Notes: generated by a model from the sequence alone, not told the origin. A stretch of DNA of 64,000 nucleotides from Eledone cirrhosa (GCA_964016885.1 OZ024748.1:39680001-39744000); one strand, 5' to 3'; positions 16,090 to 48,800 are shown, counted from the first letter of the stretch. Numbers and translations: made by a program.

Positions 16090-16357
16090 ATCTAACCCTA
16101 ACTCTAAACCTAACTCTAACCCTACCTCTAAATTTAAGTTTAATTTCTAAACCTAACCCTAACCCTAACTCTAACTCTAACTGTAACCCTAACCCTAACT
16201 CTAACTCTAACCCTAACTCTAACCCTAACTCTAAACCTAACTCTAACTCTAACTCTAAACCTAACTCTAGCCCTACCTCTAACCCTAACTCTAAATCTAA
16301 CTCCAACCCTACCTCTAACTCTAAACCTACCTCTAACTCTAACCCTACCTCTAACTC
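16090..16357. repeat. Degenerate telomere-like (TAACYC)n array
   Basis: CCCTAA/CTCTAA hexamers. Confidence 0.85.
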
Positions 16358-16359
16358 TC

Positions 16360-19058: not shown

Positions 19059-19394
19059 AAAATTGCCTTTTCTATATCCTACACTGTTACGTAAACCCTC
19101 CCTTTTCTATCGCCTCTCTCTCTTTCTTTCTGCCTCAATACATACATACAGACAGACACACACACGCTATCTATCTAGGACATAATTATTCCACGATCGA
19201 CAAGTAACAGTACACAATAGCGCACTTATGACAGGCCAGAGATTTGCGTGGGAGGTGATCTACCATAAATAACATCAATTCTACGAAACATCTGCCAAAC
19301 CAACAAGAAACAGCCATGGACTTCTCCGATCTGTAAGAAAATCTTCTTTTCAATATTTTTTTCGAAATTATATATATGTGTATATATATATATG

Positions 19395-19476
<82 letters not shown>

Positions 19477-19562
19477 TGTATATATATATATATAGCGGCG
19501 ATGAATTAGTTTTGCGAGGTTTTTTATATGAAATCGTGTGTCGAAACAAATATTGTTATACT

Positions 19563-20328
19563 TGGGGAGGGTCATATTTGTGTAACATTGCCAGAATTAA
19601 TAACAGAACACACTCACTGTTTGGTTGGTTTTCGCTTCTCGCTGTCTTTTATATCGGTAATCTAACTTACTCGGTCCTCAATGCTGCCATTGACTGACCG
19701 ACGGTCAAAAATAATACAGATACAATATAGACACAAACACATATATATAGTTTATCATAAATCTTTCGTTGCACATCTGCAACATCGTTAGTGGTGTTAT
19801 ATTTTCCTCCTGTTGTGTTGTATGTCTACGCCATTTTTATTCAGTCTGTCTATATATTTATTTATTTATTTGCTTGTTTGTTTATTTTATTTCGTCTTCT
19901 TTGCGCATGCGTTTGCGTGTGTGTATAGTGTTATGTTTGCTGTGTGATGGGTGACTAGTGTGTGTTTATGTGCTTGTTGTTATTGTGCTTGTGTATGTAT
20001 TTATTTATTTATTTATCTTATTTTATTAACTTATTTATACTTCTCTTAGGTCAGTATTGTTTGTTTGGGTGTTGTTGTTATTCCATTCATTCTTTCTGTT
20101 TAGCTTTGGTCTTCTAATTTCTATTTCACTGGCCTCTCTGATTTGCCTATCTGCTGGGTCATTTCTATGTTTAGATATTATTCTAATTTCTATGTTGTCT
20201 ATGTTACCGTCATGTTGTTGTCTAGCATGTTCGTATAGTACTGAGTACTATACGAACATGCTAGACATCAACATGACGGTAACATAGACAACATATTCTG
20301 GCAATATTACACAAATATGACCCTCCCC
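19563..20328. mobile_element. Non-autonomous element with ~33-bp inverted ends, flanked by TA-rich sequence
   Basis: ggggagggtcatatttgtgtaacattgccagaa ... ttctggcaatattacacaaatatgaccctcccc; inverted partial copy at ~60310-60900. Confidence 0.7.
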
Positions 20329-20388
<60 letters not shown>

Positions 20389-20403
20389 GTATATATGTAT
20401 ATA

Positions 20404-20599
<196 letters not shown>

Positions 20600-20607
20600 C
20601 ATACATA

Positions 20608-21246
20608 CGGGGGTTGGACAAAATAATGGAAACACCTAGCATCATAGAATCATAATTTTGAAATATCTATAAAACCGTCAAAAGCTTGTTTATTTTTATT
20701 GTTCTCGAGGTGGTCATTAAGTTTGGTAGTAATTTTGGTAGTAATTTTGGTAGTAATTTTGGTAGTAATTTGGCAGTAATTGTGGTAGTAATTTGGCAGT
20801 AATTTTGGGAGCTGTACTTTTGTGATCCTTTCTAACAATTCGCGTAAGAGTCCCACGGTATCTATCTGAAAGTTTTGGTTTTCTTCCGGAGTTTTGTTTC
20901 GACGAGGAGATTTTTCCCTCTTTCTCAAAGACTGTCATTACTTTCGAGACAGTACTTCTTGATACACCAAACATTTCGGCTGTTTTCGTTACGCTAGCGC
21001 CTGCCATACGAGCACCAACAATTTGACCTCTTTGAAAGTCCGATAGATCTGTCATTTTAATGAATTTTAATTACCTTTTTCTGATGATATCTGGAGAGAA
21101 ACAGCAATTTTAACAAATCATATTAAGCAACACTAATAATAAATATAAAAAAACATAAAAATAAACAATCTTTTGACGGTTTTATAGATATTTCAAAATT
21201 ATGATGCTATGATGCTAGGTGTTTCCATTATTTTGTCGAACCCCTG
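20608..21246 (-). mobile_element. Internally deleted Tc1 transposon
   Basis: ~80-bp TIRs (C(A/G)GGGGTT..), TA flanks, N-terminal transposase HTH (LSDFQRGQIVGARMAG..FGVSRSTVSKV..SGRKPKL) at 20800-21055, 12-bp internal repeat expansion. Confidence 0.9.
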
Positions 21247-21291
21247 TATATATATATATATATACATAATGTATAATATATATACATAATG

Positions 21292-21362
<71 letters not shown>

Positions 21363-21416
21363 ATATATATAGTGACGAAACATAAGTCAATTGCATGAAC
21401 TTATAATCCTTTATTT

Positions 21417-21472
21417 ACTGCTATGTATATTTCGATGATAGCCATTGAGTGGCTATGACCTCATCAGGCAGT
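21417..21472 (-). ncRNA. Type I hammerhead ribozyme (Penelope-type)
   Basis: Minus strand: ACTGC CTGATGA GGTCATAGCCA ctcaa TGGCTATCATC GAAAT atac ATA GCAGT. Confidence 0.78.
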
Positions 21473-21540
21473 TAGTAAGTTCTTAGATATGCCAGCTCTG
21501 TGCTTATGGTGTTGATTGTATCAGAGCCTTGGAGCACATC

Positions 21541-21586
<46 letters not shown>

Positions 21587-21639
21587 ATGTATAATATATA
21601 TATATAATGTATAGCTATACACTGTATATATAATCATAC

Positions 21640-21683
<44 letters not shown>

Positions 21684-21719
21684 CATATTCCAGCATAGCT
21701 ACGTCCGTTAACGATCTTA

Positions 21720-21832
21720 GTTCAAATCCCGACGAGGTTGACTTTGCCTTTCATCCTTACTGGGTCGATAAAATAAAGAAGCAGTAATGTACTGGGTAAT
21801 TGCTGGCCTTGTGCCAAAAAGATGAAACAATT
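21720..21832 (+). mobile_element. Family-A SINE, partial
   Basis: ttcaaatcccgacgaggttgactttgcctttcatcc body. Confidence 0.75.
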
Positions 21833-22128
21833 ATATATATATATAATATATAATATAGATATGTATATATATAATGTAGTGTGTGTTAGTGTGTATATAT
21901 GTATGTATATATATATACATGTGTGTGTGTGTAACAATTGTTCTCGGTATGGTGAACTAACTGTTGTGTTAAAGGGTGAAAGCAGCGATTCTTTGCTTAA
22001 ACTTTAATCTGTTATTTTAATAAATATTTCCTCTAGGGTTCTTATATATTTGATATATATTTATCCTTATCGAGCCCTCTTTGGATTTTAGTCTTCATAT
22101 TTATTATTATTATTACTATATATATATA

Positions 22129-22952
22129 CTAGCTGAGGTACCCGGTTATACCCGGGAGCGGGAGCATTCCCAGTTCCCATTAAAATGCCCAATGCCTCTC
22201 AGACTAAAAATGAAATACAAATATACGACAGATAATCAAAAGCGAAGACAAATTCATTTACGAAACAATAATACAAACAAATATTGTTGATTACATTGGT
22301 CAGGTGAAAATATGTTCGTCAGAGAAGTTGAGTGTTGCTATAAATAAACAAATAGAACCCCATTAGGGTGTCTCAATATTATTGACATTTGCTGAAATTT
22401 TGTGAATAAGTATCATATCTTGTCATTTACCTATGATTTAAATTTCATATAAATCGAAGGGAAAACATTTTCAGTGGGGGTTTTCAACGGGGTTTTGTGC
22501 CCCTAGGGACCCTTTGATTAAAATGAAATATACTTATCGAAGTACCCTGGGCAATGTAGTTTTAAAATATATATGGTTATGGGGGTCTATCTCCAAAAAG
22601 CATAGGAGGAGTTCGTGAAATCTTGTTCCATTTATTGGCCAAAATGTTCACTATAGGGGGTTTAACCCCCAAAAGGGTGTCTTAATATTATTGAAATTTG
22701 CTGAATTTTTGTGAATAGGCATCATATCTTGTCATTTACCTATTGTTTAAATTTCTTATAAATCGATGGGAAAAAATTAAGCGGGGGTTTTCAGCAGAGG
22801 TTTGAACACCCGGGGAACCCTTTGATTAAAATGAAATATACGTAAGAAATCAAATGGGCATGAGCCCCCACACACGTGTCAAGCTACATCAAGATCCGTT
22901 TGTTAGTTTTTGAGTTTTAGGTTCACAAACAAACAAACAGACAGACATTGCC

Positions 22953-22960
<8 letters not shown>
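22129..22960 (-). mobile_element. Non-autonomous Helitron
   Basis: Minus-strand 3' end hairpin cccgggtataaccggg then CTAG-T; internal ~190-bp duplication; 5' part also at 34262-34513. Confidence 0.7.
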
Positions 22961-22997
<37 letters not shown>

Positions 22998-23001
<4 letters not shown>

Positions 23002-23888
23002 ACACCTTTCTAGTGGGTCCGGGTATGATTTTACATTCATTTAAATTATTGATGTATTGATTTATTGATATTTTTTATCTGATTGTCCCGAATCTTCTAT
23101 TATCGATTTTTTATCGTATCGTTGATTTTAGACTTGTTCTATGTGTGACGGTATTTTAACGATAGTTATAGCTCTGATTCATCTGAATTATTGAGCCCTC
23201 TCCCGCTCATTTCGAATTTTGTTTATCGTGAACTCGTGCGCCGATTTTTCGATACTCGATCATTCTAATATTTTTAGCTCTGGACATAGCTATCCACCAG
23301 TTAATTTTATTGCTCATTTTTTGTCGATTCTATTGAGTGATGAATAGCTCCTGTTTTATTTTAACATGTCTATTGAGCACTTTTATTCGATATGTGTATT
23401 TCCACATTTCCTCGAATAGTTTTCGCGGATGTAGAGGTTATCTCCCTTGCCGGATTCCATGTGCGTATTTTGCTTGTAGTTAGCCTCTTATCCGCTAGGA
23501 CGAAGCTCGTTGAAGAAGTAAACTTCCAGTCCGCTTGCTCTAGAAGTCTTATATATTTATATGTGAGCTGATAGAGTACAGTCTAAGGATTTACAGAAAC
23601 CCAAGAAGCTAGATTTTACACCTTTCTAGTGGGTCCGGGTATGATTTTACATTCATTTAAATTATTGATGTATTGATTTATTGATATTTTTTATCTGATT
23701 GTCCCGAATCTTCTGTTATCGATTTTTTATCGTATGGTTGATTTTAGACTTGTTCTATGTGTGACGGTATTTTAACGATAGTTATAGCTCTGATTCATCT
23801 GAATTATTGAGCCCTCTGCCGCTCATTTCGAATTTTGTTTATCGTGAACTCGTGCGACGATTTTTCGATACTCGATCATTCTAATATA
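22998..23888. repeat. Direct repeat (~270 bp at 22998 and 23615) within a TA microsatellite; Penelope pseudo-LTR-like
   Basis: tttacacctttctagtgggtccgggtatg... occurs twice. Confidence 0.6.
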
Positions 23889-24409
23889 TATATATATATA
23901 TATATATACTATAAAGCTAACGGCCGTATGTATGTAACAAACTTTTCGCCAAACGGCTGGACCAAACAGCACCAAATTTGCACTATAGATGTAACTTTTT
24001 CCAAGTAAAAAAGTGAGGGTATTTTTGTCTACTGAATTTTGTTAAAAGATTAAAGACATTACTTAAATATTCACTTCTTTAAAATTTCAAATGTCAACAC
24101 TTCCTGTTATACGACATTCCTCACTTTTTTTCGTCGCACAACATTCCCCTCTTTTTCTTAGTCTGTCTTTTTAGATAGATATAGGGCTATAACGTAGCGT
24201 CTTTATAATATGTCTCTGTATGTCTGGCTGTCTGTATTAGATAACGTTTTTCGAAATATTTACTTCTGGGTTCACAGATTGATATTTTTTAGTTTCAGAA
24301 GTTAAGGGTGAAAGCCTTTGCTTAAACATTGTTATTTTAATATATATATTCGTGTACAGATATTTTGCATACACAAAAACAAAAACCTATTTATTTCACT
24401 AAAGCACAG

Positions 24410-24860
24410 ACGGCTTATCGTCATTGTTACTGTTCGAGGTTAGAGGCCCACAGTCTATCCAAGATCTGAGAACCATCAATAGCCAACAATGTTCCACTTA
24501 CCGTTTGGCTTGCCAGATGCGTGGTTTGTTACACGATGACACCTATTGGCACCTCACACTGCAAGAAGCAGCAACTGCTAAAGTCCCTTCTCAGCTGCGA
24601 AAACCTTTTGCTATTATGCTGCACAACTGTGATCTCGCCACCCCGAAAGTCTAGCTGAGGACATCCTCCACCGCACACGCAGACACAATCCGAGCGTAAG
24701 ATACGATGTCTTTTTCAATGAGGCGCTCATCTGTCTTGAAAACAGTGTCCTGGAGATTGGTGGTAGGCTTCTAAGTCACTACAGCTTACCTGCTCCTGAC
24801 AGGAGTGTCCTGAGGTCAATGTCTACAGAGCTTCTCCGCGAGACGAGCTACGAGATCAGT
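24410..24860 (+). pseudogene. Helitron RepHel fragment
   Basis: LLFEVRGPQSIQDLRTIN..TYRLACQMRGLLHDD.YW..TLQEA..LR..F..ML..C matches the Rep-helicase linker region; stops and frameshifts. Confidence 0.8.
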
Positions 24861-25214
24861 GCTTCTCCAGTGGTCAATTGTATGTAGGATGCTGAAAGAA
24901 AAAGAGAAAAATTTCAAATCTTTTATGTGGGATATGCAAATGAAGTAGAAGAGTAGACTGAAAATATCGTTATATTTAGACGCCAGGTACATTTAAATAA
25001 TTATTAGGATACTTTATAAAAGAAGATGAAGCAGAAGAAGGAAGAAAGATAGGCTCATATTATTATTAGGGTGCAAGTAGATTTAAAAATTTAAAATGTG
25101 TTGAAGTGGTAGAATACTAAAGCAAAAAGTGTTCAATATATAACCAAATCATGAGTTATAATATATATATAATGTATATAATTATATTTTAAGGAATTAA
25201 GGTTGTAGGTACAC

Positions 25215-25328
25215 TTTAGCTTATTATATTGCAACCAGTCAATTTAGCTTATTATATTGAAACCAGTCAATTTAGCTTATTATATGGAAACCAGTCAATT
25301 TAGCTTATTATATTGCAACCAGTCAATT
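25215..25328. repeat. 28-bp tandem repeat x4
   Basis: tttagcttattatattgcaaccagtcaa. Confidence 0.85.
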
Positions 25329-25599
25329 ATATACATATTTATATAAATAGATAAAAATATATACATGCTGTTATTAATTCAAATATAATTTAAGGGTTAC
25401 GAAGGATATGTGTTTACATTTTCAATATATAGTTAAGAAAAAAAAGTCCAAGATGGCACGGATGGGGTGGGCAGGAAGGAGACGTCCATACCATAATGCC
25501 AATGTAAGACAGTAGCTATTGTCATTTTATCGTGTCAGTTGATATTACGTTAAATATAATTCCGGTTTTATCTGTGATTTACTGATATAGCTTACGTCA

Positions 25600-25990
25600 A
25601 TTGTTTCTTCTTCGTCCAGTTATTTCTGAGAGGGTCGTGGGGGTCAGAGTCCTCCAACACTCCTTCCAGCAAGTCATGTCAGAAGCAACCGTTTCCAACT
25701 GATCCGGCTGGATCTCCCAAGCATGACCAGCCAAGCTCATGGATCTTAGCAAACCATCTTACTCAGGGTGGGTCGATCCCTGGGTTTCTTGTCGGTTTGT
25801 TTTGCCCGTAAAATCTGTCCGGTGATTCTTTCCTGAGACATTCTAACCACATGTCCATAGTATCAGAGCTGTGATCTCTCAATTCGGAGAAGTAGCGGCT
25901 CTACCTGGAGTAACTCTCTGATCTCAGAACTACGCACCCTATCGAGTAACATTACTCCAAAGACCCTTCAGAGGAATCCCATTTCGGCCG
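25600..25990 (-). mobile_element. RTE-clade LINE 3' fragment
   Basis: Homologous to 29280-29680 and 35400-35640; minus strand encodes AAEMGFL..RSSEIRE..IERSQL.YYGHVVRM. Confidence 0.75.
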
Positions 25991-26062
25991 CTTGTATTGT
26001 TTCTATTTACGAAATAACACAACTGAGGATTTTAATAGTGTCAAATTTTCGTTTCCTTTCAG

Positions 26063-27560
26063 TTCCGACTTTATCGAACCATTTAAAATACATATTGTAG
26101 AGAACATAAAGATCAATAACCGTAACGACAGATTAATTGCTCTCGAGAAAGCTGACTACAACATTTTTAAATTACAACCTGAAGATGTCATGATCGATTT
26201 CCTTACAGATGCTGGCACTAATGCTTTCAGTCTTGAACAAAACGCAAGAATATGGATGGGTGATGAAAGTTATGCCGGATCTACTAGTTATGAAACTTTG
26301 AAAGACACGGCAACATATATTTCTGGTTTTGAAAACATTCTGCCAGTTTTTTCTGAATGCATCAGCGAAGAGATTGTCGCTTCTTATTTCACAAAAGCTG
26401 GAGATAAGGTTATTGGGAATACTTTTACTTATTCACTTGAGAAGCATATAAAGGATCTTCATGCTGAAGCGATTTCTTTGTTAGATTGGTCAGATAATAA
26501 TTTTGCAGGAAATCTAGATGTTCAAGCACTCAAAAACTTATTGGCAGAAAATGATAAAAAATCAATTTCCTTTCTTATAATGAATGTACCAGCAAAAAGT
26601 AGTGGTGGCCAACCAGTTAGTATGTCAAACATGAAAGCAGTTTCTGATCTCTGTCGCGAACATTCGATTCCGATATACATCGAAAGTAGTATGTATGGTG
26701 AGAACTGTTGGCTCAATAAAATGTACGAAGAGGCTTACTTCAATAAATCGTTAGTTGAGATATCGCAAGAAATGTTTTCTTTTTTCGATGGCTGCATTAT
26801 TTCTGCTAAAAGAGATGGTAGAAGTGAGATTGGAAGTGTCATTTGTCTTCAAGACAAAGAAATGACTCGAAAATTGGGCACTGTTATTACTCTTAAAGCA
26901 GGTTTCATAACTTATGGTGGGATGGCTGGCCGAGATATGGAAATGGTAGCGGTTGGCATGCGAGGTGCTTTGGATGAACAACTGCAAGACTATCGACAAA
27001 AACAATTGGCATTTTTCAAAAGATCCCTGAAGGAATTTGGTGTTCCGATTGTGGAGCCAGTCGGTTGTAATACCATCTTCATTGATGCCGAAAATGCTTT
27101 TCCTAACTGTAAACACGCGTTTTATCCAGCCTGGTCTTTATCTTGTGCTGTTTATATCGTCGGGGGTATCCGATGCGCAGAGTTTGGTCAAGTTACTCGT
27201 CCAACAAGCAGCTTACCCACTAATCATTTTCTGAAAGACCGAGAATTACTAAAGCTTGAGATACCTCGTTTCATCTATACGACTTGTCACATTTTCTATG
27301 TTGCCTATGTTTTCGCTCAGCTTATTTCACATGAAATGCTTTCTGGAATGAAACTTATTGCCTGCTCCGAAGACCAAATAAAACTCGTGAAAATAAAAAT
27401 GAAACCAAATCATTCTCTGGAATATGACGATATCCAACTCCTTCCGGTACAAGACTGTGAACACATTCACTTCTTTAAAAACATATATAATCAAAGAGTT
27501 ATGAAAAGAAATTCAATCGCCGAGGCATCTTCTATATGGTCAGTCGACATTCCTTCTTAA
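26063..27560 (+). CDS. Tryptophanase/tyrosine phenol-lyase family protein, paralog A (lacks PLP lysine; keeps trans-acting Tyr); spliced exon, 5' exon not certain
   Basis: Uninterrupted ~500-codon frame: EPFKI, IDFLTDAGT, GDESYAGS, GGQPVSM, SAKRDG, GFITYGGMAGRD, GIRCAE, LEIPR. Acceptor ttttcgtttcctttcAG at 26061-26062. The TTG start at 25992 is not credible. Confidence 0.85.
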
Positions 27561-27754
27561 AAAGTGGACAAACACGTTAGATAATGTAATCGTAGACACA
27601 AAAAAGACGTGGTAGTCATGATTGGAACGTCCCTGATCATAGAATTGCTCTGTCAATGTTCACCTGAACTTAAACAACAGCAACAACAACACAGAGATTT
27701 TTTTTGTTGCACCCAAACAGGATTCTGTAAATTCTAGATTGTACATTCTTTTAT

Positions 27755-27897
27755 TCTTTTACTGGTTTCAGTCATTAGACTGTGGCCATGCTGGGGTACT
27801 GTTCTTTTACTGGTTTCAGTCATTAGACTGTGGCCATGCTGGAGCAGTGGTCTTTTACTGGATTCAGTGATTCTACTGTGGCCATGCTAGGGCACCA
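27755..27897. repeat. ~48-bp tandem repeat x3 (fragment of a dispersed repeat)
   Basis: ttcttttactggtttcagtcattagactgtggccatgctgg repeated. Confidence 0.75.
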
Positions 27898-28092
27898 ATT
27901 GATTGTTAGTTTGTTTTTTTTAATTGGTTTTATTCCCAACAATTAAACTATTGAACATGATTTTGAATAGAAAGTAGGGGAAAACATTGACAGTCTTGTC
28001 AAATATAGTTTTAATATTATGTTAACAAAAAAAGGAAATAAAATATCTTTGGAAACTTAAATATATTTCTTGTGATGTTCTTTTACAATTAT

Positions 28093-28375
28093 TTCACCAA
28101 TATATAATTAATATCAAACATTGTGATGTATGTTTCACCAATATATAATTAATAACAAACATTGTGATGTATGTTACACCAATATATAATTAATATCAAA
28201 CATTGTGATGTATGTTACACCAATATATAATTAATATCAAACATTGTGATGTATGTTTCACCAATATATAATTAATATCAAACATTGTGATGTATGTTTC
28301 ACCAATATATAATTAATATGAAACATTGTGATGTATGTTTCACCAATATATAATTAATATGAAACATTGTGATGT
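28093..28375. repeat. 41-bp minisatellite x~7
   Basis: caccaatatataattaatatcaaacattgtgatgtatgttt. Confidence 0.9.
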
Positions 28376-29279
28376 GGTTGTGATAATTCGGGGAAAGATG
28401 GTACAACGAATATTAGATAAACTAAGGTGAAAAGATACAACAAATCAGCATTTTAAACTTTCGTCTTATATTTCTTGATGTTTTGAGGTGAGAAACTTTT
28501 TTCAAAAGAAAGAAATGGAGTCTGGTCTTGTCAACGCCCAAAGAAATGTTGATAAACGATTTATTTACATCAACTTATTATTGATGGTGACATGCTTTTG
28601 TTTCACTTTAAAAAAATATTATAATAAGGTGACATACTAATATAAATATTATTTTAAAAATAAAAAACAAATCTTGAAACATCTTATGACTGTGGCAGTG
28701 GCAAGGTTTATAGAGTTAAGAAGCCTCACAACCATCTGATTTCCGGTTCCTTTAGACTACATGGCATCTTAAAGAAGTGTCTTTCTGCCATAGGTTCGAG
28801 TCAACAAAACGGACAGTTTGCCCTTTTCGGCTTGGCGGGCAGCAGGGCCTGGACTGGTGGTGGAATGCACCAGGTTGGCACTTGCAATTAATTGTAATAT
28901 AACTGATAGATGTTGTTTCAATTCTGTGCCATTAATTGTAGATCAACGACAACATTGTTGCAGTAGTTATTTCAATTATGTGCCATTAATAATCTGTGTT
29001 ACGAACACTACATAAATAGTCTACAGGTGTTACCTTGATTTCACCAGATGGAAATATCAAAATCAAAATTGATTATGTAATTGTTCCAAACAATATTCTC
29101 GAAATGGTGAAAAACTGCCATGTGTATATTTCTACAGATATTGGTCTAGAATATTTCAACTTAGAGACTGGAAAACACAAACGTTATTATCATAAATGTA
29201 CTGTGATTGTGTGAGGCTTAATTATTAAAGATTGTAAAATCCATTCCCTGTGAATTATATCCAAGAATTTTCTTTTTCT

Positions 29280-30080
29280 TCCTTCACTTATTCCTGAGAA
29301 GGTCGTGGGGGAAGAGTCTTGAAACACTCCTTCTAGCAGGTCCTGTCAGAAGCAACCATCTCGAACTGATTTGGCTGGATCCCCAAGCGATACCTGCCAA
29401 GCTTATGGATGTTATCCAACTATCTTGCTCAGGGTCTACTCCTGGGTCTCCTGCTGGTTGGTTTTGCCAATAAAATCTGTCCAGTATTTCCTTGGACATT
29501 CTAGCCATATAATATGTAATATCAGAGCTATGATTTCTCAATTCGGAGAAGTATCAGTTCTACCAGGAGTGATTCACAAGTCTCCAAGCTACACACACTA
29601 TCGAGTAATGATACTCCAAATACCCTTTTGGAGGAACCCCATTTTGGCCACTTGTATTTGCGATTGTATTCTTTCAGTCATTACACAAGATTCATGACCA
29701 TAGGTAAGGGTTGGCACGAAAATCGAATTGAAGATAGTGAGTTTGGTGTTTACACCTACCTCCCTTCTTCTGATTACCAAATGCCAAAGCTGTCACATTA
29801 CTGCAGCAGCTCCTGCAATTATTGCACTTAATTCGGCCTCCTGCCTTCCATCACTCGTGACCATGGCCCTGAGATACTTGAACTTCTCTACCAACTTCAG
29901 TAGAACTCCTTTCGCATGTAGAATGCACTGCGCAGGCTTCCTTTAGAAGACGAGTGTCTCAGTTTTCACAGCACTGAATTTCATTCCAGCCATGCATCAC
30001 TCTGCATCAAACCTATCAAGTGCAAGTCAGAGATCACCTTTTGTTGAGTTTGTAACACCATGTTGTCTGCAAATTCCAGC
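29280..30080 (-). mobile_element. RTE-clade LINE 3' fragment
   Basis: KLTIFNSIFVPTLTYGHES..IQVAKMGFL; FKYL motif; degenerate. Confidence 0.8.
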
Positions 30081-30163
30081 CACAAATTGCTGGCCATGTG
30101 CCTAAATTAGAAAACCTTATTCCTGCAAAAGGTCCTGTTAATCCTTAATTATTATTAAATATA

Positions 30164-30568
30164 ACATATATACAAACTGGAGCTGTGTCAGGGACCAGTC
30201 CGCAAACATATATACAAACTGGAGCTGTGTCAGGGACCAGCCTGCAAACATATATACAAACTGGAGCTGTGTCAGGGACCAGTCCACAAACATATATACA
30301 AACTGGAGCTGTGTCAGAGACCAGTCCGCAAACATATATACAAACTGGAGCTGTGTCAGGGACCAGTCCGCAAACATATATACAAACTGGAGCTGTGTCA
30401 GGGACCAGCCTGCAAACATATATACAAACTGGAGCTGTGTCAGGGACCAGTCCGCAAACATATATACAAACTGGAGCTGTGTCAGGGACCAGTCCGCAAA
30501 CATATATACAAACTGGAGCTGTGTAAGGGACCAGTCCGCAAAAATATATACAAACTGGAGCTGTGTCA
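30164..30568. repeat. 42-bp minisatellite x~10
   Basis: acatatatacaaactggagctgtgtcagggaccagtccgcaa. Confidence 0.95.
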
Positions 30569-30916
30569 GTGACAATGTCTGCAAACAATGAGTTGAACAT
30601 TTTAACACCAAGAAATATATGATAAATAAAAACTACAGTTAACAGATTTTTGTGTTTTGAATTACTAAAGTGACTCGTGTACAATGTAATTGGTATATAT
30701 ATATATATATATATACTCACTCTATATGTATGTGTTTTTATATAAATATGTAAATATTTGTGTATATATATATATAGTTGTTATATAGTAAGGTGTATTA
30801 TTGGTTGTGTCATACGGTCCAATAAACTTTTGTTAGCAATATTAAGTTCTCCACGCTTTTGTATATCTCCAATTCCATTTAAGGGAACAGCTAGATGATG
30901 TAAAACGGAGTATTTG

Positions 30917-32515
30917 TATCAAAATAAAGATCCGAAAGCATGGTATAAATTTCCAATCATTTTAATCACAACACGTTTCAATAAGGGATAGATCGATCGT
31001 GTGGTCATGATCGATTATCACTGATTTCATCATTCTTAACTGAGCGTGTAATACGTCTATTTACTAACTGAGAGAACTCTATGGTTAGGGTATTCTAAAC
31101 CTTCCTCAGGATTTTTGGAAAGTAACCTACCACTAACTCCCCCCTTTTTACCTTAGCCATAGAGTTCTCTCAATTAGCAAAAAATAGACAATCACATACT
31201 CAGGTAGTAGACAGCTAAGATCGTTTGCGCACTTACACACTGTACTCGGTATGTTTCCACAGAGTTCTCACAGTTGAGTGCATATTTACCATTACTTTAG
31301 AATACCTAGTTAGTAAATAGTTAGAACAATTACACTCGCAGTTAAGACCGATTACGCGCATTCACCATTACTTTAGAATACCCTAACCATAGAGTTCTCT
31401 CAGTTAGTAAATAGACGTATTACACACTCAGTTAAGAACGTTACGCTCTTTATACATAATTCTACACAGTACCCGGTTTCTTTAGACACAGAGTTGCCAC
31501 AGTTATGACCAGTCATGATCTTGTCGATTGAATACTACACTAGGTTTTGGTCTGTGATCCTCTAACCAAGGAGTGCTCACAGTTTGCTGAATGGACAATA
31601 CTACTTACACGCCATCAATGGACTTACACACATCCCCGGGGTTTTGTTATTTTATTTTGTGTTGGGTAACACACCTCCACCACTCAAACACTTATCTTAA
31701 AGGCCCGAGGGCCCATTTGACGGGAAAACGCACACACTGACACCTTAACTCAAATACCCAACCCTACATGGAGCCCCTTGTTGGCCTACATGGCAGGTGC
31801 TTGCACGCACAGACTCGGGGACCCAGATTCTCAACGGGACAACGGCACATATAGAGTTCGATACGAGCTGACTACTTGCTCTACACATGGATGTGTATAT
31901 ACCAAAACATACACTATTTAGACGATACAGATGTTACAATTCAATCGATACACGTATAGCAGAACGTTGAAGGGAATTTACTTGCGTGTGTATAGTGTTG
32001 TGGTTGACCCAATTTTTTTCTAATTTACATCGTGAAAATTGAGATTTGACCAATATAACGTTTGTTGTTTTGTAACCTAACTTTTGGTGCATACTGTGTT
32101 GCTGTGTATATTTTTTTTTCTCTGACCTCGCGTCGGTGTGTGTGAGTGTGTGTGCACTCAATAACACTAATTGTGACGGACCAAAATTCTACAGATCTGG
32201 TGCTGAGATTAGACCTGTCCAGCGTCTTTTACAGCTATTGAGAGATAGAGACTTGATAGATTTATGACCCTGACTGAAGACAATAGCAGTTGTCGTGTTT
32301 TGGCTGCTGATTATTCATATGGGGAACAAAACTCCAGTGAGTGAACATCGTTAGTTTTTCCTCCCTCATATCAAAGATTTGAAGACATTTCATTATTCAC
32401 CTGATGAGATCAGTGATAATCGATCATGACCACACGATCGATCCCTTATTGAAAAATGTCTCGTGATTAAAATGATTGGAAATGTATACCATGCCTTCGG
32501 ATCTTTATTTTGATA
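30917..32515. mobile_element. 1.6-kb non-coding element with ~115-bp inverted ends and nested internal inverted repeats
   Basis: tatcaaaataaagatccgaa..tcatca (30917-31032) is inverted at 32402-32515; internal IR 31035-31098 / 31372-31438. Confidence 0.75.
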
Positions 32516-32562
32516 TATATATATAAAACTGAATTTACATTTTTTTTTCCAGTCTCCAAGCA

Positions 32563-33942
32563 ATGGAACCTTACAGGATTAAGGTATTTTATCCAGTCAA
32601 TTTAATCCCCAAGTCTGACCGTATTGCATGTCTAAAAGCTGCCAACTACAACCCCTTTCTACTTAAATCGAAAGACATATTTATAGATTTGCTAACAGAT
32701 TCTGGTACAGGAAGTCAAAGCAGTGCCCAGTGGTCGGCTATGACTAAAGCCGGCTATTCAACTATTAATTCCGAATACGTTAAGGAATTTGTACGTACAA
32801 TTCAACACATTACCAATTTCAAACATGTATTTCCAGTTCATCAAGGTCGAGGAGCCGAAGGTTTGTTGGCAAAACTCCTACTGAATAAAGAGAGTGTTGT
32901 ACTGAGTAATTCTCTCTTTGACACAACACGAGCACACGTTGAGTCATCTGGTGCAATTGGAATAGATTTGGCAACAAAGTCTTCAAAATTCTTAGGTGAT
33001 GCCGATGTGGAAAAATTTGAAGAAACACTGGATGAATATGGTTCTAGAGTTCATCTTGTAATAATAACCTGCACCAATAATGTGGTAGCCGGAGCTCCTG
33101 TGAGCATGCAAAATATAGAAATCATAACAAAATTATGTCGAAACAAGAATATCCCAGTTATAATGGACGCATGCCGTTTTGTTGAAAATGCTTATTTTAT
33201 CAAGACCTTAGACGAAAAATATTCTAAACACACAATCTTAGATATTGCCAGCGAAATGTTTTCTTATTTTGATGGTGCAACTATGTCTTTAAAGAAAGAT
33301 GGTATGAGCAATGAAGGTGGGTTTATAGCTTTCAACAACGACAAATGGGCCACCAAAATATTTGACATAATCGAATATAAAAGTGGTTATTCAACTTACG
33401 GGGGAATAACTGGATCAAATCTTGTAGCATGTACTGTCGGAATTTCTGAGGCTATGAACGAAAATTACCTCCGATCAAGAATCTATCAGGCTAAATTACT
33501 GGCTGATTTCTTGGAAGATAATAATATTCCCGTATTTAAACCAGTAGGGGCCCATGCCGTCTACGTGAAAGCAAACAAAGTCTTGCCACACCTTGATTTC
33601 TTGAAGTATCCAGCATGGTCCCTTAATTGTGCCGTATATATCGAAGGTGGTATTCGATGTGCAGAAATTGGCAATATAATGTTTGGTGAAAATTCAGATG
33701 GAACAAAACAAATTCATCCCTTTGAATATGTGCGTTTGGCTTTACCCAGAAGAACCTATACGGTCAACCATCTGCATTTTGTGGCCAAAACTTTTGGTTT
33801 TGTTGCCAAAAAAGCCCATTTAATCCACGGAATGGAAATTGTCAAATCTTCGCATCTCCTAAGACATTTCACAATTTGGATGAGACCATTAAATGAATAC
33901 CACCTTGAAAAGAATAATAATCAGAAAAAAATAAACTGTTGA
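32563..33942 (+). CDS. tnaA: Tryptophanase-like PLP-dependent beta-eliminating lyase, paralog B (PLP Lys intact; catalytic Tyr replaced)
   Basis: 459-aa intact ORF: EPYRI, IDLLTDSGTG, HQGRGAE, FDTT, TNN, DACRFVENAYFI, MSLKKDG, AEIG, VRLALPRRTYT, LRHFT. FDTT/EIG/RHF are tryptophanase-type rather than TPL-type. Acceptor ttttttttccAG at 32551-32552. Confidence 0.92.
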   Translation: MEPYRIKVFYPVNLIPKSDRIACLKAANYNPFLLKSKDIFIDLLTDSGTGSQSSAQWSAMTKAGYSTINSEYVKEFVRTIQHITNFKHVFPVHQGRGAEGLLAKLLLNKESVVLSNSLFDTTRAHVESSGAIGIDLATKSSKFLGDADVEKFEETLDEYGSRVHLVIITCTNNVVAGAPVSMQNIEIITKLCRNKNIPVIMDACRFVENAYFIKTLDEKYSKHTILDIASEMFSYFDGATMSLKKDGMSNEGGFIAFNNDKWATKIFDIIEYKSGYSTYGGITGSNLVACTVGISEAMNENYLRSRIYQAKLLADFLEDNNIPVFKPVGAHAVYVKANKVLPHLDFLKYPAWSLNCAVYIEGGIRCAEIGNIMFGENSDGTKQIHPFEYVRLALPRRTYTVNHLHFVAKTFGFVAKKAHLIHGMEIVKSSHLLRHFTIWMRPLNEYHLEKNNNQKKINC

Positions 33943-45858: not shown

Positions 45859-48800
45859 ATTAATAAAAACAATGAATAAAAACAAAGAAACAGTTCCTTA
45901 TATTAACAAATTCATCATTTTACGATCGTTTCTAGGATATATATGTGTGTGTTGGTATGTATATCATATAGATCTATGTAAACATTTTACAAAGTATCAG
46001 AGGAATTATACATACCTACACATATATATGCTGAATATATGAAATAATGATATTTGTTTATTGAAAAACACCAACAAAGATTTAATATAAGTCTGTTTGG
46101 GAACAGGTTTTTAATTGACCAATAGAAGAGTAGTAAGTGGTCAAGTTGATAGAATAGTAGTAGTAGAAATTTAATTTAGGGGTAGAGGAATGCAGACTTC
46201 AGTTTTGAATGGAAATAATACTTTGAATGAAAAGATTACTTTGGGGATGAAAAGAGGTCAAGCCGGTGAAAGGTACACGAAAATTTTATGTTATTAAAGA
46301 ATAATGCTAATGTTAAAATCGAAGGAGAATAAAATTTTAGGATAAATGTGTTAGTGAGAAATACCAATCTTATTAAAAACATAAGGAATTTAGATCTATA
46401 AAAAGAAATTAAATTAATTAATAGGTATACTTATAGGGATAAATTTATATTAATTCATATAGATGTGATAAATAAGAGTTAGATGTTATTAAAGAATGTT
46501 GTTAAAAACGAAGGAAAAAAATTGGGGGGGGGGGGGATAAATGTATTAGTGAGAAATAACAAACTTATATAGACTACAAGGAATTTAGATTCATAACAGG
46601 AAATTAAAATAGTTTATATGTATACTTATAGGTATTAATTTTAGGAAAAGATAGCTGTAACAGGGAAATAAAATTATGAAGTTCTCAGTAGTAAAATACT
46701 AATTATAGGTTAACTAAATTTAAAAAAAGCTAATTATAAGAATTTGTAATATAAAAGTGTATATTAATTAGGTTTATAATATTTGAAAGTTCTTCTAATT
46801 CTATGATTGCACGATATAATTAATTCTTGTTGCTTATTTAATAGGATATCCTTAGATTTCATTATTTCGAAAAGTTCCTGGGAACATAATCTACACTCAT
46901 ATCTGTTATTTTGATAAGGGATGGCCCTTCTGAGCACACTCCAGGTCAGGTTATAATTGATATACTTTTTTCTATAATTATTAATTATTTCAGCCAAGGA
47001 TGTTATATTAGCTAATGCGGCATTTCTAAACTGTGTTTGTGGGTATTAAATCTTACTTTAAATTCGTTAGAAGTAGCTCCTATATATGAATAAGTTGAGT
47101 CCTTAGTGCTAATTTTACATTTATATACTATGTTATTAATAAGGCAATTTCCTTTTAATGGGCAATTTGCATTGTTTCTCAAGGATCAATTTCCCCCTCG
47201 TCCTTCTGCATATGAAAGTCTGCTGTCCAGGTTGGTTGTTTGCGACTTCTTTGCGATCTCCGCAGTGTTGGGGCGGCACTTTGGGTTTCCTCTTCCTCGG
47301 AGTCCGTTGACACAGTGATTCTACGGACATCCAGGACATGACGTGGTACTCCGTCCAAGGACACATTGTTCTGGGAATTTATGGCCGTCACCGTTCCCCT
47401 TCCCCATTGAGATGTGCAACGTGCATATGGGGGCTTAACCCAGACTTCTTCGCCCACCTGCACGAATGCACTCTCTCTCCCCACTGGCCGTTGTGATGGC
47501 GTGCACGGGTGCCGCCACTCGTATCTGAATACTGCTCTGTGTGGCACCGATTCCTCGACCTGTCTCACCCGAGGGGACATGTTGTACCAGAACACTGCCT
47601 CCATTGATGAGATATGACCCCGCTCCACCATTGCCTTGATCGTCCGGTGGTGTCGCTCTACAATTCCATTCCCGCTCGGCCTGTGCGCTGCTCTGAAGAA
47701 ACGGTCCACCTTCCATCCATCGAGCATCTCCCTCAGCGCCTCCGAGCGCAACGCTGCGCTGTTGTCCATCAGCAGTTCGTCCACAGGGCCCCGCTCCAAG
47801 AACACTTCTCTCAACGTCCGCATGATTTCCTCGGCCCTTCCAGTCTTCATCTGCCTCCATATCGCCATCCGTCCTGATCCACAGTCGACCATCGAGAGGT
47901 ACGTTCCCTGTCGATAGTGCGTTACATCCACCGCCAATCGCTTCCAGTCGCGATCCACCGAGAGGCTTCCCGTTTCGTGCACACCCGGGGCGGGATCAAT
48001 GGACTGACATCGGACGCAGCCTCTAACCACCCTTTGAACACTGTGTCTGTTAACGTCCGAGTCGATTCTCCTGGCTAGGAACAGGCTCCTATCCACTCCC
48101 ATGTGGTGCATGTCATGCAACCCTTTCAGATCCGACTCGGTCAGCCGACACACGGCAGCTATCTCATCATCTACCTCCTCCGGTGCTTCCATCCAGGCTT
48201 TATTCACCCTAGTTAAGACGTCCGCCCTATTTTTCTCTGAGAGCACGAAAACTACACTCAGCTTCGGGTCGAACTCGGTGGCCAGCTCTCCTAAAGTTCC
48301 CAGGCGGCGCTTTATCAGCATCTCCGCCGCCCCTCTCGTTCGCACTCTCTTCTCACTGGTGAGCACTGATATCACCCATCCGAGTACAGTAGCCGAGTCG
48401 GTGCGTATCTCGATGGATGCGCATTCCCCACCTCAGGGCGAGGTTCACCCCTCTCAACACTGCGTCCAGTTCGGCTACATTGATGTGGTTGCAGTCGTCC
48501 TTCTTCCTAAGCCAGGCTGCATCCTCGACCTCAACACCTCCTATCTCCAACGTGACACCCAGCGCTATGCTGCTGGCATCGCACCATACGGTCCCGCTCT
48601 GTGATTTGGGAACATACCACCCTCCCCACGAACTCCTGCATCGTGACCATCTCTTGACATAGCTGCATGCCGTCCGGAGCCACCCAGCAATCGGGTAGTC
48701 ACCCACCAACTTTCCACACACCGAGAAAAGCTCCCGCCTACTCATACTTGGGCCCAGTTCTGGAACTTCATTTCCCCTCTGGAATACCAAGACGCCCGTC

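Follow-up and report, generated by a model that had tools for sequence, protein, structure and literature searches.

Reciprocal active-site losses in two probable alternative last exons of a tryptophanase-family gene in octopods suggest an obligate heteromeric enzyme

Introduction

The two proteins treated here, A and B, are encoded in one window of the Eledone cirrhosa genome (the whole stretch of 64,000 nucleotides analysed; GCA_964016885.1 OZ024748.1:39680001-39744000) and are of the same family and fold as tryptophan indole-lyase (tryptophanase, EC 4.1.99.1; P. vulgaris 1ax4, E. coli TnaA 2c44, B. thetaiotaomicron 8sbg). Tyrosine phenol-lyase (TPL, EC 4.1.99.2; C. freundii 2ez1) has the same fold and shared-site architecture, and supplies their best PDB matches by sequence and by structure. 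Tyr72*/Tyr74 and Tyr307 work from the opposite chain (passages of PMC11301627 and PMC2770544), Tyr307 of the E. coli enzyme being named as cross-subunit in PMC2770544; Y74F is described as having negligible activity. In the P. vulgaris enzyme, roles are given for Asp133, His458 and Phe459, and Asp133 binds the indole NH (PMC11301627). Each chain of the known tryptophanases, which are homotetramers, carries the full set of residues. Neither A nor B does, and a further difference is that both chains appear to derive from a single gene via alternative last exons.

Passage from homodimer to heterodimer, with one PLP lysine per pair, is known from other fold-type-I PLP enzymes, namely serine palmitoyltransferase (SPTLC1/SPTLC2) and the alpha/beta glycine decarboxylase P-protein. 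These belong to other subfamilies with other reactions and, unlike A and B, have subunits from separate genes or a fused chain. Trypanosome deoxyhypusine synthase (DHSc/DHSp) went from homo-oligomer to obligate heterotetramer, as proposed here for A/B, and DHSc is activated 3000-fold by its dead paralog (PMC3663545); the reference list of PMC10216422 holds a title on shared active-site complementation in this enzyme. Unlike A/B, DHSc/DHSp is an unrelated NAD enzyme from two separate genes and is experimentally proven.

No description of the A/B split or of the isoform pair was found in the literature searched. In the passages covered, PMC8537960 includes tnaA of O. bimaculoides and O. vulgaris in a phylogenetic tree with no comment on the active site, and PMC4962025, a KEGG-based comparison, gives no tryptophanase match for O. 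bimaculoides. That comparison probably missed an indole-making enzyme; judged from the proteins below, octopuses probably make indole-type products with an enzyme of their own, and it is probably a mistake to annotate A or B by itself as an active enzyme.

If our reading is correct, this is a clean natural example of complementary loss turning an enzyme into an obligate heteromer; unusually, a single animal gene would supply both subunits, as splice forms. Splice forms of one gene are guaranteed a shared promoter, so that the losses would be tolerable. The ancestral state could be taken from whole chiton and bivalve relatives and a bacterial fusion would be an independent repeat, which makes the homomer-to-heteromer question testable with three purified proteins.

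Results and discussion

Complementary residues in two open frames

A preliminary description of the locus had reported two frames with complementary active-site losses. Both are present and open, with 498 aa from 26064 for A (P0001) and 459 aa from 32563 for B (P0002); the four codons it named (Tyr 26271, Arg 26811, Thr 32761, Lys 33295) are correct, and alignments to C. freundii TPL bear out every motif change that it listed. From Glu to Tyr the distance is 65 in both A and TPL; in B, Thr stands at position 65.

The reciprocal pattern recurs in all orthologue rows, 10/10 for A and 9/9 for B. In every A row the equivalents of cross-subunit Asp68, Glu69 and Tyr71 (TPL numbering) and the second Tyr are retained and the PLP lysine is absent (0/10); B is the mirror image (Lys present in 9/9, Tyr in 0/9). 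GDESYAG is invariant in the 10 A rows, its Asp, Glu, Tyr and Gly being found in 0/9 B rows. The equivalents of Tyr, Asp68, Glu69 and Gly73, and the Arg/Glu after YGG, are missing from B, which retains every own-chain catalytic residue; the Asn185 column, for example, is Asn in 9/9 B rows and Lys in 10/10 A rows. Such reciprocal and conserved loss, of own-chain residues in A and of cross-chain residues in B, is what marks shared-site heteromers of the DHSc/DHSp type. Each row set comprises named octopods and a sister lineage, with identities of 42-46% (A) and 51-57% (B), and the rows are non-independent, three A rows and two more falling in shared 90% clusters. Fragments (P0007, P0235) and near-duplicates (P0237, P0240, P0241, P0243, P0245-P0248 and most of P0354-P0367) were excluded from the residue table.

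Among 108 columns conserved to at least 97% in 317 single-chain relatives, 11 are kept by A only, 18 by B only, 47 by both, 29 are mixed and 3 are kept by neither, the Glu of the EG(F)xxYGG loop being one of these last; the single-chain controls (310) are top search hits, not a random sample. On these alignments the reciprocal column pattern is not chance, and the losses are real and old. B keeps the fold without the Tyr segment, which argues that A retains this segment not merely for folding.

Two caveats raised earlier, that B has a Tyr two residues before the expected position and keeps YGG, lose weight: the former residue is unconserved (Phe in 4, His in 3 and Tyr in 1 of the 9 rows shown), which rules out Tyr65 of B as a substitute for the lost Tyr, and the Tyr of YGG is Phe in 5/9 B rows.

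A probable single gene with a shared first exon

The preliminary description called A and B tandem paralogs; at the level of the gene this has to be revised, as A and B are best read not as two genes but as parts of a single one, in which a common first exon precedes two alternative last exons (Table 1). Frames A and B each start at a splice acceptor (26063; 32553), one upstream exon serving both. Frame A lacks its own start codon, and the in-frame ATG of exon B (32563) is codon 10 in the spliced form. One donor is in phase with the two acceptors, and each last exon closes with its own stop. Searched for with a degenerate pattern (two substitutions permitted), the coding first exon is the only hit within the window; it yields MDFSDL, in frame with both acceptors, and this N-terminus is identical in isoforms X1 and X2 of O. 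bimaculoides and O. sinensis. According to RefSeq annotation, the Octopus orthologues of A and B are isoforms X1/X2 of one gene in two species. N-termini of the A-record and B-record of the sister lineage differ, and the evidence for a shared first exon is thus confined to the octopod records.

Table 1 Features of the A/B gene in the window (residues of A and B as named in the text)
Feature	Position	Strand	Remark
Upstream block with 5' untranslated part of shared first exon and probable promoter	19060..19315	+	sequence
Shared first exon, coding part: start codon, MDFSD, 2 bases of codon 6, then GTAAG donor	19316..19332	+	
Intron before exon A, GT...AG, phase 2	19333..26062	+	
Intron before exon B, skipping A	19333..32552	+	predicted joint
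Exon A, coding: putative 'donor' subunit, full fold, without PLP site	26063..27560	+	
GDESYAG of A, equivalents of Asp68, Glu69, Tyr71 (TPL numbering), predicted to be lent to partner site	26259..26279	+	
Arg replacing PLP lysine in A	26811..26813	+	Arg in 10/10 A rows
YGGMAGRD loop of A: second cross-subunit Tyr, then Arg/Glu	26913..26936	+	Tyr, Gly, Arg in 10/10 A rows
Candidate poly(A) signals of isoform A: ATTAAA 27942, AATAAA 28037	27942..28042	+	
Exon B, coding: PLP-bearing subunit	32553..33942	+	
AGYST of B in place of GDESY	32749..32763	+	replaced in 9/9 B rows
HQGR phosphate loop of B	32839..32850	+	9/9 B rows
Asp120 of B (P. vulgaris Asp133, indole NH binding; tryptophan-type mark)	32920..32922	+	
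PLP lysine of B, Lys245	33295..33297	+	9/9 B rows
RHF of B (His458/Phe459 of P. vulgaris enzyme)	33862..33870	+	Arg 9/9, His 9/9, Phe 7/9 B rows

The block 19060-19360 is found again 5' of most units genome-wide (11 matches, DNA search), and exon 1 also precedes the L009 and L015 units, plus others by DNA search. Both splice joints in Eledone cirrhosa are predicted. In run X4, which is RNA by likeness rather than by record and whose reads were placed over 25400-28080 (the exon A region), contig 32 begins at the A acceptor (26063) with 29 letters unplaced upstream; these and one base common to both acceptors make 30, which fits a contig starting at the A/B branch of a 31-mer graph, and the contig edge may well be the splice branch between A and B. 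X4 contains 0.61 of the sampled words from the B stretch. Its coding differences (n=11) agree with L009, the copy at C8:39127689, and not with the one in the window. Depth drops from 56 to below 2 past about 27920, and the true 3' end of isoform A may lie before the candidate poly(A) signals.

Copies in the genome

The genome has about ten duplicates of this unit, 98-100% alike, of which that in the window is one, so the earlier remark that the frames are stop-free amid decayed repeats is weak evidence of function. Several copies carry frameshifts or a stop, and pN/pS among them (unique sites over 10 copies and two partial ones, window copy as reference) is 0.57 for A and 1.29 for B, neither differing from 1. 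The window copy looks like a young duplicate with coding changes that are neutral or nearly so among copies. Such near-neutral change in near-identical, partly broken copies is what functionless decaying duplicates or an assembly artefact would give; this could apply at most to the extra copies. For the A/B design itself, decay is refuted by the open, conserved frames that both subunits have in four named octopods and the sister lineage; the DNA-like runs X1-X3 contain the stretch, with variants common to several copies. Decay or artefact is accordingly very improbable, and the real evidence of selection, as read from the orthologues, is cross-species conservation, not the open frames. Bacterial contamination was ruled out by the chromosome-scale contig, the splice signals, the orthologues in named octopods and an animal clade in the tree.

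Family, substrate type and phylogeny

Both proteins pass the tryptophanase subfamily model NF009709 (NCBIfam; A 397.6 and B 493 bits, cut-off 285) and fail all three equivalog cut-offs, namely TIGR02617 (A/B 279/348 vs 825.8), NF053783 (328/390 vs 750), these being set for bacterial proteins, and TIGR02618 for tyrosine phenol-lyase (320/382 vs 720.7). A is a fold type I family member by whole-chain profile match and by its model (pLDDT 85.4), with TM 0.8-0.9 against TPL/TnaA and TPL 9j3u as best Foldseek match (TM 0.83/0.90). Summed, A and B have all the catalytic residues of tryptophanase and of the whole animal enzymes.

The substrate type can be narrowed, on residue identities, to tryptophan rather than tyrosine. 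Thr124, Arg381 and Phe448 of TPL are Asp, Ile and His in B, and equivalents of the indole-binding, tryptophan-type Asp133, His458 and Phe459 are found, as in tryptophanase, and only in B (9/9, 9/9 and 7/9 rows; Asp120 in 0/10 A rows). Some A records are labelled 'tyrosine phenol-lyase-like' in RefSeq, which these residues do not support.

The relatives in chiton (XP_064603801.1), bivalve and corals each consist of one whole chain; among the candidates scored with the chiton enzyme (23/23), no whole single-chain copy was found in the genome. A and B group together in the tree (SH-aLRT 87 and 82 only, not starred), and are nested in a mollusc clade (98, 99) whose remaining members are whole. As in the DHSc/DHSp type, the two descend from one homo-oligomeric enzyme, the sister pairing having support of 87 and 82 only.

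Proposed heteromer and complex model

The A/B complex model scored 0.81 (best of three controls 0.00), a mark reached by 51/78 solved and 2/108 mismatched pairs (eukaryotes 39/65 and 2/126). Homodimers of the tryptophanase/TPL family have been solved and may underlie the prediction, so that this pass shows likeness only. The runs concur in at least 92% of contacts, with partner pLDDT of at least 88. The Tyr of A is placed at the site of B in this model. Modelled contacts join Tyr70 of A to Thr45 and Gly48 of B, Glu68 of A to Gly48 and Asn250 of B, and the YGGMAGRD loop of A to residues 93, 250, 251 and 283-286 of B.

We consider it likely that A and B form an obligate heteromeric tryptophan indole-lyase, each dimer having a single site. 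In a molluscan tryptophanase gene, the one large coding exon would have been duplicated downstream of exon 1, and one promoter would give both splice products, which would co-assemble; each would then be free to lose the half-site supplied by the other. B would bind PLP and substrate (Lys245, HQGR, Phe119/Asp120, Asn173, Asp202, Arg205, Arg391, His435/Phe436), and A would lend across the dimer its general-acid Tyr70, Glu68, Phe281 and the Tyr284 loop. The dimer, probably within A2B2, would have one working and one dead site, and would most likely split L-tryptophan or a ring-substituted tryptophan into indole, pyruvate and ammonia. Heteromer formation, activity and substrate are all predicted. 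The earlier proposal of complementary half-sites, with A lending the Tyr and B holding PLP, thus stands as a prediction favoured by orthologues, literature, model and bacterial parallel, but not on its tandem-paralog basis.

B might instead act alone, as a Tyr-independent beta-lyase homo-oligomer on S-alkyl-cysteines, cysteine or serine derivatives, with A a separate or modulating pseudoenzyme. B does have all own-chain catalytic residues, and 15/149 diverse representatives are stand-alone chains of <500 aa that lack the Tyr and bear the Lys, which means that Tyr loss per se needs no partner; 9cen, a thiocysteine lyase domain, is distantly related. Family mutants often stay active on good leaving groups, Tyr71Phe among them. 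Asp133Ala also retains such activity (PMC11301627). Against this, B has the Asp133 and His458 equivalents for indole (9/9) and has lost, beyond the Tyr, Asp68, Glu69, Gly73 and the Arg/Glu after YGG, and the presence of Tyr, never Phe, in 10/10 A rows would go unexplained. We regard B acting alone as unlikely.

Seven pocket replacements in A (Arg250, Glu207, Met210, Lys178, Asn336, Lys397, Thr122) are invariant in 10/10 rows, for which pure decay is an insufficient explanation. Given also the full fold in the model, A could be non-catalytic, its remodelled pocket binding a small ligand and Tyr70 serving an A/A site or allosteric control; B would then be left with no general acid, the invariant replacements may just plug an empty cofactor pocket, and a sensing site in A fits the heteromer equally, so that we hold a purely non-catalytic A to be quite improbable. 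For the heteromer, a broader scheme is conceivable and decidedly tentative, in which last-exon choice sets the amount of active enzyme in coleoid cephalopods, the dead pocket of A is a ligand-sensing site, and the same split arose separately in bacteria.

A bacterial parallel

A double TPL fusion of about 890 aa (P0249; Gemmatimonadota, Myxococcota, Acidobacteriota and others), on which no publication was found, shows the same reciprocal split. Its N-half keeps GDExY and YGG and is missing the lysine in 79/79 rows, the C-half being the mirror; 3/80 loci were without an open frame >820 aa, and L021 duplicates P0249. The fusion differs from A/B in being one chain rather than two splice forms, in the TPL type of its catalytic half, and in the Asp214/Arg217 of its N-half, missing in A. 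Such a split between covalently tied halves is left unexplained if B works alone; if the heteromer reading is right, the fusion is a natural replicate for shared-site splitting after duplication. Where a single side keeps a column in each of the two systems, they agree in 16 of 18 cases (Fisher p 0.0025). Common origin is rejected by the AU test (LG+G4, 40 rows), both for A with the N-half (p 0.002) and for B with the C-half (p 7e-36); the bacterial split has a separate origin, unrelated by descent to A/B.

Two frames of the tryptophanase family

Two open frames lie on the forward strand (features with coordinates are collected in the table below), A translating from 26064 into 498 aa (P0001) and B from 32563 into 459 aa (P0002). 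Both match tryptophanases and tyrosine phenol-lyases (TPL) along their whole length (best PDB E-values 7e-85 for A and 4e-99 for B); in profile scoring both passed the NCBIfam tryptophanase subfamily cut-off, and both failed three NCBIfam equivalog cut-offs. In its predicted structure A is a complete fold-type-I chain (pLDDT 85.4; TM 0.83/0.90 against TPL 9j3u). The preliminary description had proposed tandem tryptophanase paralogs with complementary active-site losses, forming a candidate obligate heteromer; the four codons it named were correct when the window sequence was re-read, and each motif change it listed is legible in the alignments of A and B to C. freundii TPL.

Features of the window (window coordinates)
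Feature	Position	Strand	Basis
Degenerate telomere-like (AACCCT)n arrays, in and around the amplified unit	1-758; 16091-16358; 53950-54879		
Broken LINE-like retroelements and an LTR-like element	4118-13317; 61372-63627; 47179-50629	minus for the last two	judged by eye from ORF translations
Candidate first exon, followed by a GTAAG donor	19316-19332		degenerate pattern search, single match in window
Short interspersed repeat of very high depth, directly 5' of the A acceptor	25620-26030		
Open frame holding A	25950-27560	+	ORF scan of window
Exon A	26063-27560	+	start behind pyrimidine tract and AG
Alignment of the 1740-letter X4 contig	26063-27771		29 letters unaligned upstream of acceptor
Replaced residues of A (122, 178, 207, 210, 250, 336, 397)	26427-27254		invariant in 10/10 rows
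Open frame holding B	32533-33942	+	ORF scan of window
Exon B	32553-33942	+	start behind pyrimidine tract and AG

A probable single gene with alternative last exons

The A frame has no start codon. The N-terminus of both the A and the B orthologue in O. bimaculoides reads MDFSDL, and the candidate first exon is in phase with both acceptors, its splicing yielding MDFSDL for A and B alike. The RefSeq annotation gives the O. bimaculoides pair as isoforms X1 (XP_014791032.1) and X2 (XP_014791033.1), and the O. sinensis pair likewise as isoforms X1 and X2. The B stretch is present in four public sequencing runs (X1-X4), an RNA origin being on record for none of the four. X1-X3 cross the A acceptor uninterrupted, like DNA; in X4 cover is absent from the two most upstream bins of the A region, and its contig stops aligning at the acceptor. 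Exons A and B share an identical first base and then diverge. With this base the 29 overhanging letters of X4 make 30, the number that a 31-mer contig would carry if it started where A and B part after a common exon; we infer that the contig edge is this splice branch. Read together at the sequence level, these observations point to A and B being splice forms of one gene, with a common first exon and two alternative last exons, and the earlier view of two tandem genes gives way to this reading, as one exon fits both acceptors and RefSeq lists isoforms.

Conservation of the reciprocal pattern

Relatives were collected with three queries (B, A and an alignment of A sequences) and by cluster look-ups. 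A-type and B-type proteins were found in O. bimaculoides, O. sinensis, O. vulgaris and Argonauta hians; further A-type (42-46% identity) and B-type (51-57%) records sit in the tree on sister branches that mirror each other, and our guess is that they are from squid or cuttlefish. In the joint alignment, whose A and B rows are partly non-independent, Asp68, Glu69, Tyr71, Gly73, Arg297 and Glu300 (TPL numbering) are present in 10/10 A rows and 0/9 B rows, Tyr291 in 10/10 and 4/9; Gly99, Phe123, Asp124, Asn185, Asp214, Arg217, Lys257, Asn262, His343 and Arg404 are present in 9/9 B rows and 0/10 A rows. The reciprocal pattern extends over 10 A rows and 9 B rows, drawn from named octopods and the sister lineage. 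Two earlier reservations, that B has a Tyr two residues upstream and that it keeps YGG, lose weight: for Tyr65 of B most orthologues carry Phe or His, and FGG stands in 5/9 B rows.

Across 317 single-chain relatives, 108 columns reach at least 97% conservation; A alone keeps 11 of them, B alone 18, both subunits 47 and neither 3, and the remaining 29 are mixed. The three columns lost by both subunits, one of them an invariant Glu, speak against a working heteromer, as do the seven new, invariant residues in the dead pocket of A, which may plug the pocket or bind a ligand. Also against it, a set of 149 diverse family representatives contains 15 single chains shorter than 500 aa that have the PLP lysine but no catalytic Tyr, often with Phe in its place (P0409, P0410, P0418, P0421, P0425, P0434, P0450 and others); these may have partners or a new chemistry.

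Tyr and Lys are both retained in all seven chiton, bivalve and coral relatives. In a genome search with the chiton enzyme all 23 scored candidates were A or B copies, none whole.

Extra bivalve paralogs of Sinanodonta woodiana (P0320, P0368) retain Tyr and Lys, the RHF motif being gone from P0320. Three adjacent gene models of Argonauta hians (P0007, P0123, P0383) comprise two B-type models and one of 847 aa, in which a B N-part is joined to a whole A; they suggest repeated A/B units there as well, the fused model probably being a mis-joined annotation. In one B-type cluster of the sister lineage the C-terminal third has diverged in some records (P0006, P0244 vs P0242, P0243; PRR to PNR, RHF to RHL), which may point to a second B exon that is diverging.

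Residues acting across the dimer

Glu69 has a cation role, together with Gly52 and Asn262. Tyr72*, contributed by the partner chain in the catalytic dimer, protonates indole C3, the indole ring being held by Asp133, His458 and Phe459 (PMC11301627); the PLP phosphate of each subunit is bonded by Tyr74 and Tyr307 of its neighbour, and Y74F has negligible activity (PMC2770544); the TPL residues are Tyr71, Arg381, Thr124 and Lys257 (PMC10170061).

Modelled together as one complex, B, PLP and A gave a score of 0.81 (best control 0.00), above a mark reached by 51/78 solved and 2/108 mismatched pairs (39/65 and 2/126 in eukaryotes); at least 92% of contacts agree between runs, and partner pLDDT is at least 88. 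Modelled contacts join A Tyr70 to B Thr45 and Gly48, A Glu68 to B Gly48 and Asn250, and A 286-291 to B His93, Asn250 and 283-286. In the model the A tyrosine reaches the B site, as had been proposed; since homodimers of the family are solved, the score indicates that the canonical arrangement is accessible and is no evidence that A and B bind or prefer each other.

Proposed mechanism and substrate

A whole molluscan tryptophanase would have had its coding exon duplicated downstream of its first exon; a single promoter would then have given both splice forms, which assembled together, and each would have lost the half-site supplied by the other. A and B would work as a dimer, probably as A2B2, in which Lys245 of B carries PLP and Tyr70 of A serves as the general acid. 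We consider this course, from exon duplication to A/B dimer, the most likely. Given such a heteromer, the balance tilts towards a substrate that is tryptophan itself or a substituted form of it, because B has Asp120, His435 and Phe436 and lacks the Thr124, Arg381 and Phe448 of TPL.

Serine palmitoyltransferase and glycine decarboxylase are further examples of the same principle. Trypanosome deoxyhypusine synthase is a known one (accessible parts of PMC3663545 and PMC10216422). A literature search, most subscription journals being outside its scope, turned up no publication describing either a split tryptophanase or the octopus isoform pair; in the available portions of two papers, octopus tnaA appears in a phylogeny only (PMC8537960) and O. 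bimaculoides has no KEGG tryptophanase match (PMC4962025). What appears to be new is the split in the tryptophanase/TPL family in an animal and its conservation, the origin of both subunits from one gene through a choice of last exon, and the convergent split in a bacterial fusion.

Bacterial fusion proteins

The search with A gave two double-length bacterial proteins (P0128, P0141). A search with P0249, an 890-aa double TPL fusion, kept 80 of 131 loci, 77 of the 80 with a full frame; they span Gemmatimonadota, Myxococcota, Acidobacteriota and others, and the fusion is widespread. Like A, the N-half retains GDExY and YGG and has lost the lysine (79/79 rows); the C-half is its mirror and TPL-type, and the half order is the same in more distant fusions. 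Of 18 columns that are one-sided in both the cephalopod and the bacterial system, 16 agree (p 0.0025). The fusion halves sit apart from the animal clade in trees. AU tests under LG+G4 rejected a common origin for both pairings, A plus N-half at p 0.002 and B plus C-half at p 7e-36, trees and tests including long branches. Judged by sequence, the cephalopod split and the bacterial fusion appear to be convergent and independent.

Amplification of the unit

On contig C8 (39.12-40.13 Mb) the exon 1-A-B unit is amplified about ten times: A is matched over its full length at 10 places and in part, in inverted orientation, at two more, and B is present at 9 loci; spacers are 98-100% alike. Exon 1, an open A and an open B are present in five units (window, L009, L014, L015, L016). 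In two units B is frameshifted and the coding exon 1 is absent from the stretch examined; in the other broken units A is frameshifted (one), B carries a stop (one) or B is absent from the stretch examined (one). Coding differences among copies show no departure from neutrality, and none touches a diagnostic residue. At each of its 11 coding differences from the window copy, the X4 contig agrees with L009, the only matching unit, so the transcript-like evidence belongs to L009 or to another individual's allele and not provably to the window copy. The telomere-like arrays may have helped the amplification.
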